From Clostridia bacterium (GTDB taxonomy: Bacteria; Bacillota; Clostridia; UMGS1883), in NCBI GenBank assembly GCA_051866635.1, contig JBJDXJ010000058.1, forward strand, positions 25,873 through 89,872: 64,000 nucleotides of DNA. Direction: 5' to 3'. The notes below the pieces were generated by a model. The model was not told where the DNA came from, ran no database searches, and worked only from the letters and a program-made list of their open reading frames with translations. Shown here piece by piece: positions 530 through 24,426 of the stretch. The position numbers were made by a program, and so were the translations under genes. Within the stretch, counting starts at the first letter, position 1. Every line of letters begins with the position of its first letter.

Positions 530-1801
530 TTAGAATATGATGATAATAAACTGAGATACAAGCACTACAGCTATCAAAGCGATGGGATATGTAGCCGCAT
601 ATGCTGCCGCAACATCTTCAGTGCCTGCAACAGAGATAAGTGTACCAAGGGCAGGAGTAGAAGTCATACCGCCGGTCAATGAACCGAGGCTGTTTAAAAG
701 AGGCATCTTCAATACAAACTTTGCAAAGATGAAACCAAGAATCATGGGAACAAGTGTCATAATAATACCGTATACAAAGTACATGGGGTCAAAGTTTGCA
801 ACGAATTCTGTACCGCCGGGAATACCTGCACCAACAAGGAAAAGGATAAGACCAAGCTCACGGAAAAGCTTAAGTGTGCTCTGCTGAGGCATAATGCTTA
901 CCTTACCAATTCTGCCGAAGTGACCAAGGATAAGTGCAACCAAAAGGCATCCGCCTGTTGTTGTAAGAGAGAAGCATGTACCTGAAATACCTGCACTGCT
1001 CATGGGGATTTTAACCTTACCCACAACCATACCGAGGATAGATGCCAGAGAGAATGCCGCAATACCCATATGGTCAAGGTGTAAAAGCTTAACAGGGTTC
1101 TTCTTTTCAGATTGTTCACTGCTGCCTGAAATAAGTGCTCTTTCCTTCTCCATGTCTGCCTTCATAAACTTAGGTACAAGCTGAACGAAAAGTACAACGC
1201 CCAATACACCGAATATGTAAGCAATACCGTGACCTACGGAAACAAGAGATGTATATTCACTTGCAACAGTTGCCTTTGCCGCACTGAAAGCGGGAGTAGA
1301 TGTAAGCGAACCTGAAAGGAGACCTACAATCATAGCTACAAAACCGTCAAGTGTTTCGATGGAAGAACCGTAACCGAATACATGTTTACCAAGCATGATA
1401 CATCCAACGGCACCAAGACCGCCGGCGATGATAATAACAAGACCCAAAACCACATAGCTTTTGAAGTTTTTCTTTAAGTTACCGAAGAACTTAGGACCTG
1501 CAATAAAGCCTACGCTTGTTACGAAAAGAACAAGACCAAATGTTTCAATTATTGACAAAGCATTGTCTGCATAGCTGATGCCGTCAATCTTAAGTTGCTG
1601 GCTTATTACATCGGGGAAAAGTGCACCAAATAAAAGTGCAACGATAAACACACCTGCATCACCCAAAGAAACGCCCTTTATGGTGATACGGCCCAGTGCG
1701 TAACCTACAAATAAAATTGCGAAAAGACAGAACATAAAGAATGTTATGCCTGTTACGGGAATAACTCCGCCGAACAAATTCATAATTTTCTCACCTTTCA
1801 T
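530..1801 (-). CDS. AspT/YidE/YbjL-family antiporter-like permease
   Basis: Multi-TM protein with duplicated 'GSLTSTPAF'/'GGMTSTPALG' and 'GLVLF..VG' motifs. Confidence 0.85.
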   Translation of the reverse strand: MKGEKIMNLFGGVIPVTGITFFMFCLFAILFVGYALGRITIKGVSLGDAGVFIVALLFGALFPDVISQQLKIDGISYADNALSIIETFGLVLFVTSVGFIAGPKFFGNLKKNFKSYVVLGLVIIIAGGLGAVGCIMLGKHVFGYGSSIETLDGFVAMIVGLLSGSLTSTPAFSAAKATVASEYTSLVSVGHGIAYIFGVLGVVLFVQLVPKFMKADMEKERALISGSSEQSEKKNPVKLLHLDHMGIAAFSLASILGMVVGKVKIPMSSAGISGTCFSLTTTGGCLLVALILGHFGRIGKVSIMPQQSTLKLFRELGLILFLVGAGIPGGTEFVANFDPMYFVYGIIMTLVPMILGFIFAKFVLKMPLLNSLGSLTGGMTSTPALGTLISVAGTEDVAAAYAATYPIALIAVVLVSQFIIIIF

Positions 1802-21381: not shown

Positions 21382-22209
21382 ATGAAAATAAGTAATAACG
21401 TCCATTTAATACGAAAAGAGTTCTTTGTTACGCCTTTTGTTAAAAGATATGTGAATATTTATCTTATAACAGGTAAGTTTTGTTATCTGATAGACAGCGG
21501 TGTTTGCGGCACAGAAACATTAATCGAGGAATACATGAAAACCGTAGGCAGAAAAATGACAGATATAAAGGCGATATTTCTCACCCATTCCCATCCTGAC
21601 CACATAGGTGCGGCTTTTGAAATAAAAAGGCTCACCCATTGTGAAATATATGCACCTTCCCACGAACTGAATTGGATAGAGGATATCGACGCACAATTTT
21701 CTCAGCGTCCCATTCCAAATTTTTATAACCTGGTGCCAAAATCGGTAAAGGTAAATCACCCATTGACAAACGGTGATACCCTTCTTTTAGAGGAAGGCAT
21801 AAAAATCAAAGCATTATCCACTAAAGGTCATTCCCATGGCTCAATGTCCTATATACTTAACGATGAAGTTATTTTCACAGGAGATGCTATACCTGTGTCA
21901 GGTGATTTGCCCATTTTTGTTGATTATGAGGAAACATTAAAAAGCATTCACCTTATACAAAATATTCCAAATATTAAATACTATTGCCCGGCATGGGATG
22001 ATGTATGCTCTAAAGATATGCTTGACGGGGAAATAGTCAATACGAAAGCAATGCTTTTAAGATTAAAAAATGCGGTAATTCAGACAGAAAAAGAATTTCC
22101 CGCACTTTCAAAAGAGGAAAAAATACGGGAAATTTGCAAAAGGGCAGATATGATAGACTTTTCACGAAATCCGCTATTTATTAAAAGTATTGAAGCGTGC
22201 AGTAAATAA
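21382..22209 (+). CDS. MBL-fold metallo-hydrolase
   Basis: 'THSHPDHIG', 'GHSHGS' and 'FTGDA'. Confidence 0.9.
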   Translation: MKISNNVHLIRKEFFVTPFVKRYVNIYLITGKFCYLIDSGVCGTETLIEEYMKTVGRKMTDIKAIFLTHSHPDHIGAAFEIKRLTHCEIYAPSHELNWIEDIDAQFSQRPIPNFYNLVPKSVKVNHPLTNGDTLLLEEGIKIKALSTKGHSHGSMSYILNDEVIFTGDAIPVSGDLPIFVDYEETLKSIHLIQNIPNIKYYCPAWDDVCSKDMLDGEIVNTKAMLLRLKNAVIQTEKEFPALSKEEKIREICKRADMIDFSRNPLFIKSIEACSK

Positions 22210-22310
22210 ATTTCACTAAATTGAACATATTTTTCTTTTGAGATAATATACTCTTTTCTATCCATTTTCTGAATACGTGCCTTTTGCAAAAACCATACTA
22301 TAAATTGATG

Positions 22311-22901
22311 TTAATAGTCACTTTGCGGCAACTTGTTATACTGAACTATGTAGTCACCTGTAATTTTATTTATTTTCTTTTTATAAAGCAATGTATATTT
22401 TGCTTGTCCGATTGTATAATCCTTATCCCGCTTAGGAAAGAAAGAACGGCAAAAATGAAAATCAGAATTTTCAAGTTTGTCAAGAAATATGTATATATCT
22501 CTGCTGTTATAGGCTGATTGCAAAAGGTAATCAGCCTGTATTAGCGAAAATTTGTTTTTCCTTGAATTGTATTTAAAAATAATATCATTGCGGTCAAGCA
22601 TATCTTCCAAAAATTCAAAATACTCTATTCGCTCTTTCACAAAATCAAATTTTTCACTTTTTGACAATGTATCATAAGATATTTTCCCTCTCAGCACATA
22701 ATCAAATACCTTTTCCCTCGATGCTGTACGGAAAAAGTCATTGTCTATAAGCTTATGGAGTCCTGCCAAGTGCACAAACTCAGTTTTTGAAAAATTAATT
22801 GCTATTTTTGAAAGCCGCCCTTTTTTACCGAGAACAATTTCATACTGCGTATCAATCAGATTTTGGAAAGCTAACGCACATCTTTGCAATTTGTCTGTCA
22901 T
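22311..22901 (-). CDS. PBECR4-like (Barnase-EndoU-Colicin-RelE fold) putative endoribonuclease
   Basis: 'FSKTEFVHLAGLHKL', 'IQADYLL' and 'RSFF' motifs recalled as typical of PBECR4-domain proteins; RBS GAAAGGA. Confidence 0.75.
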   Translation of the reverse strand: MTDKLQRCALAFQNLIDTQYEIVLGKKGRLSKIAINFSKTEFVHLAGLHKLIDNDFFRTASREKVFDYVLRGKISYDTLSKSEKFDFVKERIEYFEFLEDMLDRNDIIFKYNSRKNKFSLIQADYLLQSAYNSRDIYIFLDKLENSDFHFCRSFFPKRDKDYTIGQAKYTLLYKKKINKITGDYIVQYNKLPQSDY

Positions 22902-22920
22902 TGTAAAATCCTTTCACATA

Positions 22921-22956
22921 ATTAAAAGCCGCCCTACCTAAAGCAGGACGGCTTTC
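22921..22956 (-). terminator. Intrinsic terminator between the leader RNA and the nuclease ORF
   Basis: Minus strand AAAGCCGTCCTGC-TTTAG-GTAGGGCGGCTTTT-AAT. Confidence 0.75.
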
Positions 22957-23097
22957 AGTGCATTTTCTTTCAGCACTATGCCTACTCCGATTTGAGGTTT
23001 TACTGCACAAACCCCTCCCGAAAGCTCCGTATGCCAACGCGTATCGGTACGCCCACATACATCTACACTTTAACAGACACACCTGTTGCCTGTTATC
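22921..23097 (-). ncRNA. Candidate structured ncRNA (putative RNA antitoxin) upstream of the PBECR4-like gene
   Basis: GC-richer ~175-nt segment between a consensus promoter and a terminator, with several pairable stems. Confidence 0.55.
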
Positions 23098-23103
23098 AGT
23101 ATT

Positions 23104-23132
23104 ATTATACTTGAAACTTGAAAATATGTCAA
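23104..23132 (-). promoter_or_regulatory. Consensus sigma-A promoter
   Basis: TTGACA (23132-23127), 17-bp spacer, TATAAT (23109-23104). Confidence 0.85.
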
Positions 23133-23199
23133 TACATTTAAAAATATTTTGCTCCTATCATTAGTTTTTTAAGCGAAAAATGCAAGTAATTTCATTATA

Positions 23200-24426
23200 C
23201 TATCTGTCAAGGGGCAAAAGTACGCCTCTGCCATACTTTTGTTCAAAGACCATATGTGCCGCATTTTCAACATCTTTTTTTGTAACGGAATCAATGGTTT
23301 TAACTGTTTCTTCAACATCTTTTACTTCGTTATATAAAAGCATATCCTTGCCCAAAGCACTCATACGGCTTGAGGGGTTTTCCATATCCATTAATATAGC
23401 CGCCTTAAGTTGCTCTTTACCCTTTGTAAGCTCGTAATCGGTAATTCCATCCTTTAAAAGAAGGGCAATTTCCTTATGTATCAATTCTTCCGCATCTTGT
23501 AAACAGGAATAGTTTAACCCTGTATAAACGCTGAAAAGGCCTGACACCTCCGTTTGTGAGGAATAGGAATAAATGCTGTAGCAAAGCCCACGTTCTTCAC
23601 GTACAGAACGGAATATTCTGCTTGACATACTGCCGCCGAAAATATTGCTAAGCACAGACAGGCTGTGTCCCATCTTATCATCGCCAAAAGGAAGAGTGGG
23701 GAAAGAAAGGCAGAAGTGTGCCTGTTCAATATCCTTTTCCCACGAAATATCCACAGGGGTAAAGGTGGGAACTATAATCCTGTCCCCCTTAAATTGGGTA
23801 AACCGTTTTTCAAAATATTTTTCTGCCAAGCGGGAAACTTTGTCCACATCAAACTTACCGCAAACGGTGATAACAGTGTTGTCGGGGGTGTAGTAGCGTG
23901 CCATATAGTCTGTCATATGGCACCTTTCAATTTTGTCAACAGAGTCAAAACTGCCTGCAATTTCACGGCCTATAGCACTTTCGGGGTAAACAGAGGCAAG
24001 GAGTCTGTCCTGAACCAAATCTTCGGGGCAGTCCTCGTACATACTGATTTCCTCTTTAATAACCCCACGTTCAATGTCAATATCCTTTTTGTCAAGCTTT
24101 GGGTTGTGGTAAATATCGGACAAAATATCAAAGCTTAATTCAATATGTTCGGGAAGGGTACGTGAATAGTAGCATGTGCAGTCACGGCTTGTAAAAGCAT
24201 TTGCCTGACCGCCCACATAGTCGGTCTGTTCATTTATCTCTTGTGCAGTGCGGTTTTCCGTGCCTTTGAAAACCATATGCTCGATAAAGTGGCTTATGCC
24301 CCATTCGGTTATTTTTTCGTTGGCACTTCCTGCCTTAACCCACACACCCACAAAAGTGGAATGTGCACCAATCATTTGTTCTGTTATCACACGTAAACCA
24401 TTTTTTAAAGTTATAATTTTCGCCAT
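23200..24426 (-). CDS. M16 (pitrilysin/insulinase-like) zinc peptidase
   Basis: HFIEH inverted zinc motif and 'NAFTS'; usual position downstream of pnp. Confidence 0.92.
   Translation of the reverse strand: MAKIITLKNGLRVITEQMIGAHSTFVGVWVKAGSANEKITEWGISHFIEHMVFKGTENRTAQEINEQTDYVGGQANAFTSRDCTCYYSRTLPEHIELSFDILSDIYHNPKLDKKDIDIERGVIKEEISMYEDCPEDLVQDRLLASVYPESAIGREIAGSFDSVDKIERCHMTDYMARYYTPDNTVITVCGKFDVDKVSRLAEKYFEKRFTQFKGDRIIVPTFTPVDISWEKDIEQAHFCLSFPTLPFGDDKMGHSLSVLSNIFGGSMSSRIFRSVREERGLCYSIYSYSSQTEVSGLFSVYTGLNYSCLQDAEELIHKEIALLLKDGITDYELTKGKEQLKAAILMDMENPSSRMSALGKDMLLYNEVKDVEETVKTIDSVTKKDVENAAHMVFEQKYGRGVLLPLDR

Follow-up and report, generated by a model that had tools for sequence, protein, structure and literature searches.

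Why a terminated, structured RNA gene should stand directly in front of a gene for a predicted nuclease is the question raised by a short locus in a 64,000-nucleotide (nt) stretch of DNA from a Clostridia bacterium (assembly GCA_051866635.1, contig JBJDXJ010000058.1), referred to here as the window. The protein belongs to the PBECR4 family, and a first-pass annotation of the letters of the window had taken the RNA ahead of it for a new, type III-like RNA antitoxin or part of an anti-phage system. We find that the RNA is not new, its core being a full-length member of the Rfam family drum (RF02958), and that drum RNAs and one clade of PBECR4 genes form a near-obligate pair of fixed geometry. 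On balance, and by a small measure, we favor the view that the locus is a type III-like RNA-antitoxin/toxin or abortive-infection module parallel to AbiF-RCd22 of Clostridioides difficile. The whole module lies on the minus strand, and its coordinates are positions in the window:

23132..23104, minus strand: sigma-70-type promoter agreeing with the consensus at 12 of 12 positions (-35 TTGACA at 23132..23127, 17-nt spacer, -10 TATAAT at 23109..23104)
23071..23095, minus strand: 5'-terminal hairpin of the transcript (stem ~23095..23087 with 23079..23071), present in the minimum free energy (MFE) fold and outside the Rfam drum model
23070..22955, minus strand: drum RNA core (Rfam RF02958), pseudoknotted, a covariance-model match
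22924..22952, minus strand: intrinsic terminator from a terminator scan, a G+C-rich hairpin (stem 22946..22929) and then a T-run, beginning at the end of the drum core
22915..22909, minus strand: ribosome-binding site (RBS) GAAAGGA, 7 nt 5' of the ATG, seen directly in the sequence
22901..22311, minus strand: PBECR4 open reading frame (ORF) of 196 amino acids (aa), predicted nuclease and candidate toxin, a full-length match to Pfam PF18813

The predicted transcript of ~174 nt (23097..22924, minus strand) has a G+C content of 0.49, against 0.27-0.39 in the flanks, and an MFE of -66.3 kcal/mol (z = -4.85) that none of 200 shuffled sequences equaled. The first-pass annotation had described a TTGACA-17-TATAAT promoter, a GC-richer RNA of ~175 nt, an intrinsic terminator and then an RBS with a 196-aa ORF, and each of these elements was recovered. 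The ~22 nt between the T-run and the ATG are too short for a second promoter, so the PBECR4 ORF can be expressed only by read-through. An RNA gene directly 5' of an ORF on the same strand, a single promoter and a terminator between the two make up the layout of a toxin-antitoxin (TA) system of type III. The RNA had also been called non-repetitive, in agreement with the lack of direct repeats within 22924..23097; the one tandem repeat called, of a 7-nt unit, falls in the spacer of the promoter. Likewise, the claim that no protein antitoxin accompanies the ORF stands, as the only small neighboring ORF (69 aa, 22289..22080) gave no tblastn match in any other locus compared.

Identification of the RNA came from its core, which matches RF02958 at 76.8 bits (gathering score 43, E 4.4e-14) over model positions 1-112 of 112, with a whole-genome search returning the same match as the single copy in the 2.33-Mb source genome. 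Drum was published in 2017 as an orphan motif, one of the bacterial RNAs conserved and complex enough to suggest that their function is sophisticated; the authors stated "no specific hypothesis" for it and thought a riboswitch or self-cleaving ribozyme improbable (PMC5737381). A leader belonging to a known riboswitch family, which the first-pass annotation had named as speaking against an antitoxin, was not what emerged, because drum is filed as a small RNA (sRNA) and the 2017 authors argued against a riboswitch.

The structure of the core was evaluated in an alignment of 45 drum sequences (A4) by pairing, compensatory change, 500 column shuffles and controls with slid partners. RNAalifold alone gave helices P1, P2 and P4; P3 and the pseudoknot were taken from the Rfam structure line and inspection of the alignment, and were then tested. 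Helices P1-P4, the pseudoknot and a GGGG/CCUC helix together have 93.1% of cells paired, against 83.3% in shuffled and 27-43% in slid alignments, with changes on both sides in 23 of 31 pairs, and none of the 500 shuffles reached any of the five measures. The pseudoknot joins the P2 loop to a downstream CCGG-like segment, and all four of its pairs show compensatory changes. Covariation upstream of homologues, a check that the first-pass annotation had put forward, is thus evident for the Rfam helices P1-P4 and the pseudoknot (0/500 shuffles).

The individual stems that had been drawn by eye fared differently. The GUAUG..CAUAC stem corresponds to P2 in the Rfam structure, where covariation is strong, and the proposed 5' hairpin holds up in 39 sequences (A5): 98.5% of cells are paired, both sides change in five of seven pairs, and the covariation score was matched by none of 500 shuffles. 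This hairpin begins a few nt past the predicted transcription start, and the RF02958 model lacks it. The closing helix AGUGUA/UGCACU must be abandoned: taken with GCUUUCG/CGGAGU, it is paired in 64.1% of cells versus 63.9% after shuffling, and 205 of 500 shuffles score as high. Of the longer GCUUUCG..GGGG/CCUC..CGGAGU stem, the GCUUUCG/CGGAGU part thus behaves like random columns, and the GGGG/CCUC part is pairable in 94.9% of cells and so nearly invariant that covariation neither supports nor refutes it. Between P4 and the 3' strand of P3 lies GAAAGAAAAUG, near-invariant and unpaired in A4. The core as a whole is strongly conserved among loci and contains no variable spacer-like segment; the length of P4 alone varies.

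How regularly this RNA accompanies PBECR4 was determined from a scan of one genome per species, which gave 267 PBECR4 relatives; the best 80, with 43-82% identity to the window protein, were analyzed with their flanks. Of these 80 loci, 78 have a drum at or above the Rfam gathering score directly upstream of the gene and on its strand. Between the end of the drum model and the start codon lie 37-61 nt in 73 of them and 70-136 nt in the other five. With the window's own locus counted, 78 of 79 have a hairpin and T-run after the drum, 77 of them within -3..+2 nt of the drum end and one at +17; in L052, the exception, the hairpin is bulged. The terminator arms themselves differ widely in sequence between loci. 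At the other end, 78 loci extend far enough upstream to be scored for a promoter: 63 of them have a perfect TTGACA-17-TATAAT whose -10 box ends at a fixed 32-35 nt before the drum start, and 70 match the consensus at 10 or more of 12 positions. A purine-rich RBS occupies the corresponding place in other drum-PBECR4 loci. Overall, the order promoter, RNA, terminator, RBS and ORF proposed from the window is conserved far beyond chance.

Two of the 80 loci depart from this pattern. In L031 the contig ends 57 nt before the PBECR4 gene. In L067 an IS4-like transposase ORF (L067:1267-2643, minus strand) fills the region upstream of an intact PBECR4 ORF, and no drum was detected in that locus even with search filters off. 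As a side observation, RNA and promoter are lost together in L067, and the PBECR4 gene would be silenced too. A further irregularity was seen in L106 (G356:C1), where ~130 nt follow the drum terminator before PBECR4 begins. This extra stretch closes, just ahead of the RBS, with a repeat of the drum 3' end and another terminator, and could have arisen by partial duplication or by insertion of a large segment. Near three drum-PBECR4 loci (L023:4292-4391, L070:724-804 and L049:389-476, minus strand), other RNA motifs were noted, pemK RNA (RF02913) in two and GA-cis (RF02987) in one, which suggests neighborhoods rich in TA systems or mobile elements.

The assignment of the ORF to PBECR4 in the first-pass annotation was borne out by a profile search, in which the protein matched PF18813 at 131.1 bits (cut-off 27) over profile positions 1-187 of 188. 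The gene is single-copy in the source genome, and a Pfam scan of the ORF at E <= 0.1 returned PBECR4 and a sub-threshold GatB_Yqey match, nothing else. The domains on which the PBECR4 family was founded come from polyvalent proteins of phages and plasmids. The window protein is instead a stand-alone protein of ~195 aa with a dedicated RNA gene, and most representatives of the family are likewise stand-alone, at ~190-200 aa; at E <= 0.001 the family profile collects 1,756 cluster representatives, and at E <= 1e-30 it collects 304. Searches outside Pfam gave no NCBIfam family and one PHROGs family, of unknown function. An AlphaFold2 model built with 57 sequences (mean predicted local distance difference test score 92.3, predicted template modeling score 0.86) has helices and a beta-hairpin ahead of a sheet of five strands. 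Foldseek comparison with BFVD found two unnamed phage proteins that are clearly alike (E 3e-9 and 7e-8, template modeling score ~0.6) and a weak likeness to a phage 'PolyVal' protein (E 0.017); comparison with the ESM Atlas was uninformative (best score 0.82).

Among 57 homologues, the residues Y20, K27, F37, H44, G47, L48, R62, S82, R91, E99, D103, N105, F109, S119, F139, C151, R152, F155, Q166, L172, K174 and K176 are invariant. From this conservation, K27, H44 (in the HLAGL motif), R62, R91, E99, D103, N105, R152, Q166, K174 and K176 are candidates for an active site or RNA-binding surface.

Searches that started from the RNA gave a complementary picture, in which drums also occur without an intact partner. 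Six of 87 genomes of the same order contain drum, with 7 matches in all: PBECR4 comes after five (one of these PBECR4 matches spanning profile positions 1-78 only), another is at the end of its contig, and the seventh is an orphan with a small multidrug export gene downstream. Drum was present in only 2 of 151 genomes sampled from the phylum, the source genome and G203, and the G203 drum is followed by a divergent PBECR4 (62.9 bits). Five multi-copy genomes hold 13 drums: 8 precede a PBECR4 that is full or nearly so, 3 precede one that is truncated or interrupted by a stop, and the remaining 2 are orphans. Viral and metagenome contigs were covered by a pattern scan that yielded at least 82 loci, in which drums were found with our own covariance model, R1. 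Among the 82 loci listed, 72 have a drum, representing 37 distinct sequences. Downstream of these drums stand a full PBECR4 in 32 of the listed loci, a PBECR4 cut by the contig end in 6, a truncated, frameshifted or internally deleted PBECR4 in 21, too little sequence in 4 and no PBECR4 in 9. Thus, in 21 of the 68 assessable loci listed, PBECR4 is damaged beside a retained drum. One truncation is common to 11 of the 21 damaged genes, and in L171 it coincides with the junction to a convergent gene.

All 9 PBECR4-less drums of the pattern scan pass the Rfam gathering score (65.5-100.8 bits), and a promoter matching at least 11 of 12 positions is kept in 10 of the 12 orphans obtained by adding three from genomes. 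A distinct variant without PBECR4 downstream, at 65.5-71.7 bits against Rfam, occurs at L112:7970-8075 (plus strand), L113:2451-2556, L131:3917-4022 (minus strand) and L176:1771-1876. L112 is a temperate phage contig, with the drum in the lysogeny module between the replication genes and the repressor/integrase: the genes for primase/helicase, replication initiator, single-strand DNA-binding protein, NinB, Sak and Gam are on one strand, and the drum, repressor and integrase are on the other. Because its -10 box ends 6 nt before the drum, this orphan type has no 5' hairpin. The L112-type drum may be a decoy antitoxin, a speculative idea. In L131, a weak second drum-like match (L131:3778-3896, minus strand; R1, 30.4 bits) adjoins the main drum, which may be tandemly duplicated there.

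Other orphan drums have a BrnT/BrnA pair (L184), an integrase gene (L103) or a ToxN gene (L138) in their surroundings. The genes beside the L103 drum were considered as a GNAT/RHH toxin-antitoxin pair, a candidate that was dropped when they gave no Pfam match. In L138 the orphan drum (484-604) lies ~430 nt upstream of the ToxN gene (1033-1665, plus strand; PF13958, 170.8 bits), so that a drum and a bona fide classical type III system are neighbors in one island.

A sample of 401 genomes of the phylum contains 8 PBECR4 places in 6 genomes, with a drum upstream in five (G000, L105, L106, L110 and G203) and none in three (L107, L109 and L111); two more drum-less loci are L100 and L101. All five drum-less genes have a promoter-like site, a non-coding stretch of 150-250 nt, a hairpin with T-run and an RBS right before the ORF. 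Since these genes keep the layout with other RNAs, the design goes with the PBECR4 family as such, within which at least one exchange of the RNA has taken place. The RNAs of the drum-less genes matched no Rfam family at E <= 1. Three of them, L100:770-990 (plus strand), L107:1150-1462 (plus strand) and L111:2058-2338 (minus strand), have two internal repeats and share short conserved blocks (alignment A6); those of L100 are two 43-nt copies, 86% identical and 50 nt apart, that Tandem Repeats Finder missed. As no Rfam family matches it, the two-repeat RNA may be an undescribed motif and a second antitoxin type for the PBECR4 family.

The same arrangement extends to plasmids. Twenty plasmid records (19 Enterococcus, 1 Streptococcus) contain a PBECR4 33% identical to the window protein, and both of the two loci examined have a drum-like RNA (R1 51-52 bits, E ~5e-12) with promoter, 5' hairpin, terminator and RBS. 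On the mobilizable E. faecalis plasmid pKUB3006-2 (L239:2311-3498), a gene annotated as AbiH family (abortive infection) directly follows the drum-like RNA and PBECR4. A search of 50,697 phage records by tblastn of the protein and blastn of the RNA gave no match.

Within its own genus, the module is peculiar to the source genome. Downstream of pnp and an M16 peptidase gene, positions 21382-23199 of the window hold the drum, PBECR4, the 69-aa ORF and a convergent gene of the metallo-beta-lactamase fold, which have no counterpart in nine other genomes of the genus; drum and PBECR4 are missing from all nine, and the M16 peptidase part of 21382-24426 alone finds a match. Unrelated genes follow the M16 peptidase in the other genomes, for example a LysM-repeat protein gene in G042, and the module is thus an accessory element at a variable junction. 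None of the nine genomes offers a clean insertion site by which its boundaries could be defined.

The closest known relative in design is AbiF-RCd22 of C. difficile. A SigA promoter there precedes an ncRNA (non-coding RNA) of ~100-130 nt; the toxin ORF comes after a Rho-independent terminator and an RBS, and no promoter separates it from the RNA (PMC12373285). RCd22 carries the abiF motif RF03085, earlier just an orphan Rfam motif, in the form of two copies of a stem-loop; it lowers AbiF expression in cis by termination and neutralizes AbiF in trans by direct binding (PMC12373285). The comparison with AbiF and its RNA drawn in the first-pass annotation is therefore apt, the layout being identical and both RNAs having first been known as orphan motifs. 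The two systems differ in the toxin (Abi_2 versus PBECR4) and in the RNA, which in the drum is one pseudoknotted domain rather than two stem-loop copies, and RF03085 gave no match at E <= 10 in window positions 21500..24000.

Classical type III systems, found on plasmids, prophages and defense islands, likewise have an RNA gene upstream of the toxin, one promoter and an intrinsic terminator that keeps the RNA in excess over the toxin mRNA (PMC12373285). ToxIN, CptIN and TenpIN share the order of promoter, RNA, terminator and toxin gene with the window locus, and differ in having tandem-repeat antitoxins that the toxin cuts into units, whereas the drum has no repeats. The window protein matches only PBECR4 in Pfam, in contrast to the true ToxN of L138. 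The two-repeat RNAs of the drum-less loci L100, L107 and L111 come closer to the classical ToxI/CptI design. The original description of drum noted both a 3' intrinsic terminator and an adjoining recurrent protein gene, and in its account the associated genes stand on either side and in either orientation (PMC5737381); here, PBECR4 is directly downstream on the same strand.

Taken together, these data can be accommodated by a module in which the RNA restrains the protein. The consensus promoter would drive strong, constitutive synthesis of the ~174-nt RNA with its 5' hairpin, pseudoknotted drum core and terminator. Most transcripts would end at the terminator and the RNA would accumulate, while a minority that read through would carry the RBS and the promoterless PBECR4 ORF, leaving the protein always in deficit to the RNA. 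Drum RNA would bind PBECR4, a predicted RNase, and hold it inactive, perhaps, as a speculation, with the near-invariant single-stranded segment between P4 and P3 serving as pseudo-substrate. A drop in RNA supply or stability, through loss of the element, transcription shut-off or phage attack, would release PBECR4 to cut cellular or phage RNA. Toxicity, RNase activity, direct binding of RNA and protein, the inhibitory direction of that binding and a role against phages are all inferred here from comparative genomics. A protective RNA and a harmful protein would be in keeping with orphan drums that keep their promoter, with the repeated decay of PBECR4 beside intact RNA and with the temperate-phage lineage of drums.

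Several observations weigh against this model. Two defining features of classical type III systems, a repeat antitoxin and a ToxN-type toxin, are absent: the drum is a single-copy, non-repetitive domain, unlike the toxin-cut classical antitoxins, and the Pfam scan of the ORF (E <= 0.1) gave no match to the ToxN/AbiQ, CptN, TenpN or Abi_2 families. No family among the PADLOC defense models matched the protein. Foldseek found no PDB structure resembling the PBECR4 model at E <= 0.001, and a profile search of PDB sequences returned chance-level rows only (E >= 0.27); with no structural match, the assignment as a BECR nuclease comes solely from the Pfam family name. PBECR4 matches in G048, G083 and G078, three genomes of the same order, have no accompanying drum match. 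The orphan drums and broken PBECR4 genes could represent ordinary decay of a mobile cassette, and the pattern-scan sample from which many of them come is biased by the search pattern and also redundant, the 72 loci listed having 37 distinct drums among them and 11 showing one and the same truncation. Finally, an RNA in 5'-untranslated-region (5'-UTR) position with a terminator behind it is possibly a purely cis-acting control element.

This last point can be developed into a full alternative, in which drum acts as a cis leader only, either as a 5'-UTR sensor of a small molecule, protein or tRNA-like ligand or as an operator bound by PBECR4 that tunes terminator read-through, without trans role or TA logic. 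Such a leader would suit the arrangement of 78 of 80 loci, where drum lies directly 5' of the ORF and on its strand, with a terminator between and no second promoter. It would also suit the compact, pseudoknotted and highly conserved fold, which recalls aptamers, and the AbiF-RCd22 precedent itself acts partly in cis via premature termination (PMC12373285). We nevertheless consider a leader without trans function unlikely. Stand-alone drums with strong promoter and terminator (at least 9 viral or metagenome and 3 genomic cases, with one lineage in a temperate phage) speak against it, as do drums that stay intact beside truncated PBECR4 genes and the perfect promoter found at 63 of the 78 loci, which is better suited to bulk synthesis of an RNA than to fine tuning. 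The 2017 authors, moreover, judged a riboswitch improbable (PMC5737381). A conserved antiterminator pairing was not seen either: complementarity between terminator arms and the drum core of their own locus does not exceed that of arms taken from elsewhere (18/44, Wilcoxon p = 0.30), which gives a switching leader no support, as far as a crude duplex test can tell.

The fixed one-to-one pairing could also reflect an obligate ribonucleoprotein, in which drum is a cofactor, scaffold, guide or sensor that activates or aims PBECR4 rather than restraining it. A conserved, complex RNA fold with invariant single-stranded segments is compatible with such a role, as is the finding that each PBECR4 clade has its own RNA, and DUF3800 shows the same pattern with 11 different RNA motifs (PMC5737381). 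The absence of a variable spacer-like segment, only the length of P4 varying, leaves a guide without means of target specificity, and promoter-keeping orphan drums, one in a phage, would have little point as cofactors of a missing enzyme. Loss of PBECR4 with retention of the RNA (21 of the 68 loci) better fits a harmful protein and a protective RNA, and activation by drum accordingly seems to us improbable. Still less credible is the notion of two independent passengers, in which drum would be an sRNA with a function of its own, such as regulation of host or mobile-element genes, that merely shares a cassette with PBECR4. Orphan drums do exist, some amid TA or defense genes or beside an integrase (L138, L184 and L103, respectively ToxN, BrnT/BrnA and integrase), but spacing fixed within a few nt, a shared promoter and co-occurrence in 78 of 80 loci down to 43% identity, and at 33% on Enterococcus plasmids, are hard to reconcile with mere cohabitation.

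A broader version of the antitoxin model can be formulated, which is possible and, in our judgment, doubtful as a whole. According to it, drum-PBECR4 would be a new RNA-antitoxin (type III-like) abortive-infection family whose toxin, in fold unlike ToxN and AbiF, is silenced by a single pseudoknotted RNA in place of repeats, the PBECR4 family would have recruited at least two unrelated RNA antitoxins, and the orphan drums of temperate phages, promoters included, would be decoys that disarm the host's system, comparable to pseudo-ToxI against ToxIN.

Both components of the locus were already known, the RNA as the drum motif and the protein as a member of a predicted family. In one report, PBECR4 is listed as an upregulated Enterococcus plasmid gene (PMC11134301). 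Literature searches on PBECR4 and drum RNA found no experimental description of the family, in keeping with the first-pass annotation, and no published account of drum-PBECR4 function, the supplement of the 2017 paper, which perhaps names the protein partner of drum, being outside the search. To this record we add PBECR4 as the near-obligate, fixed-geometry partner of drum, a conserved 5' hairpin and perfect promoter on the drum transcript, a second and undescribed RNA at drum-less PBECR4 genes, and orphan drums, including phage-borne ones. No function for drum proposed since 2017 was found in the literature, and a partner and an exact transcription unit now make the question testable, with plasmid-borne versions identified in culturable Enterococcus. 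If the antitoxin model is correct, a family of ~1,756 cluster representatives would gain a function, and type III-like systems would gain a new-fold toxin and a non-repeat, pseudoknotted antitoxin. Drum would then be the second case, after abiF, of an orphan terminator-flanked RNA motif turning out to be an RNA antitoxin, and the orphan drums of prophages would become candidate anti-defense decoys.

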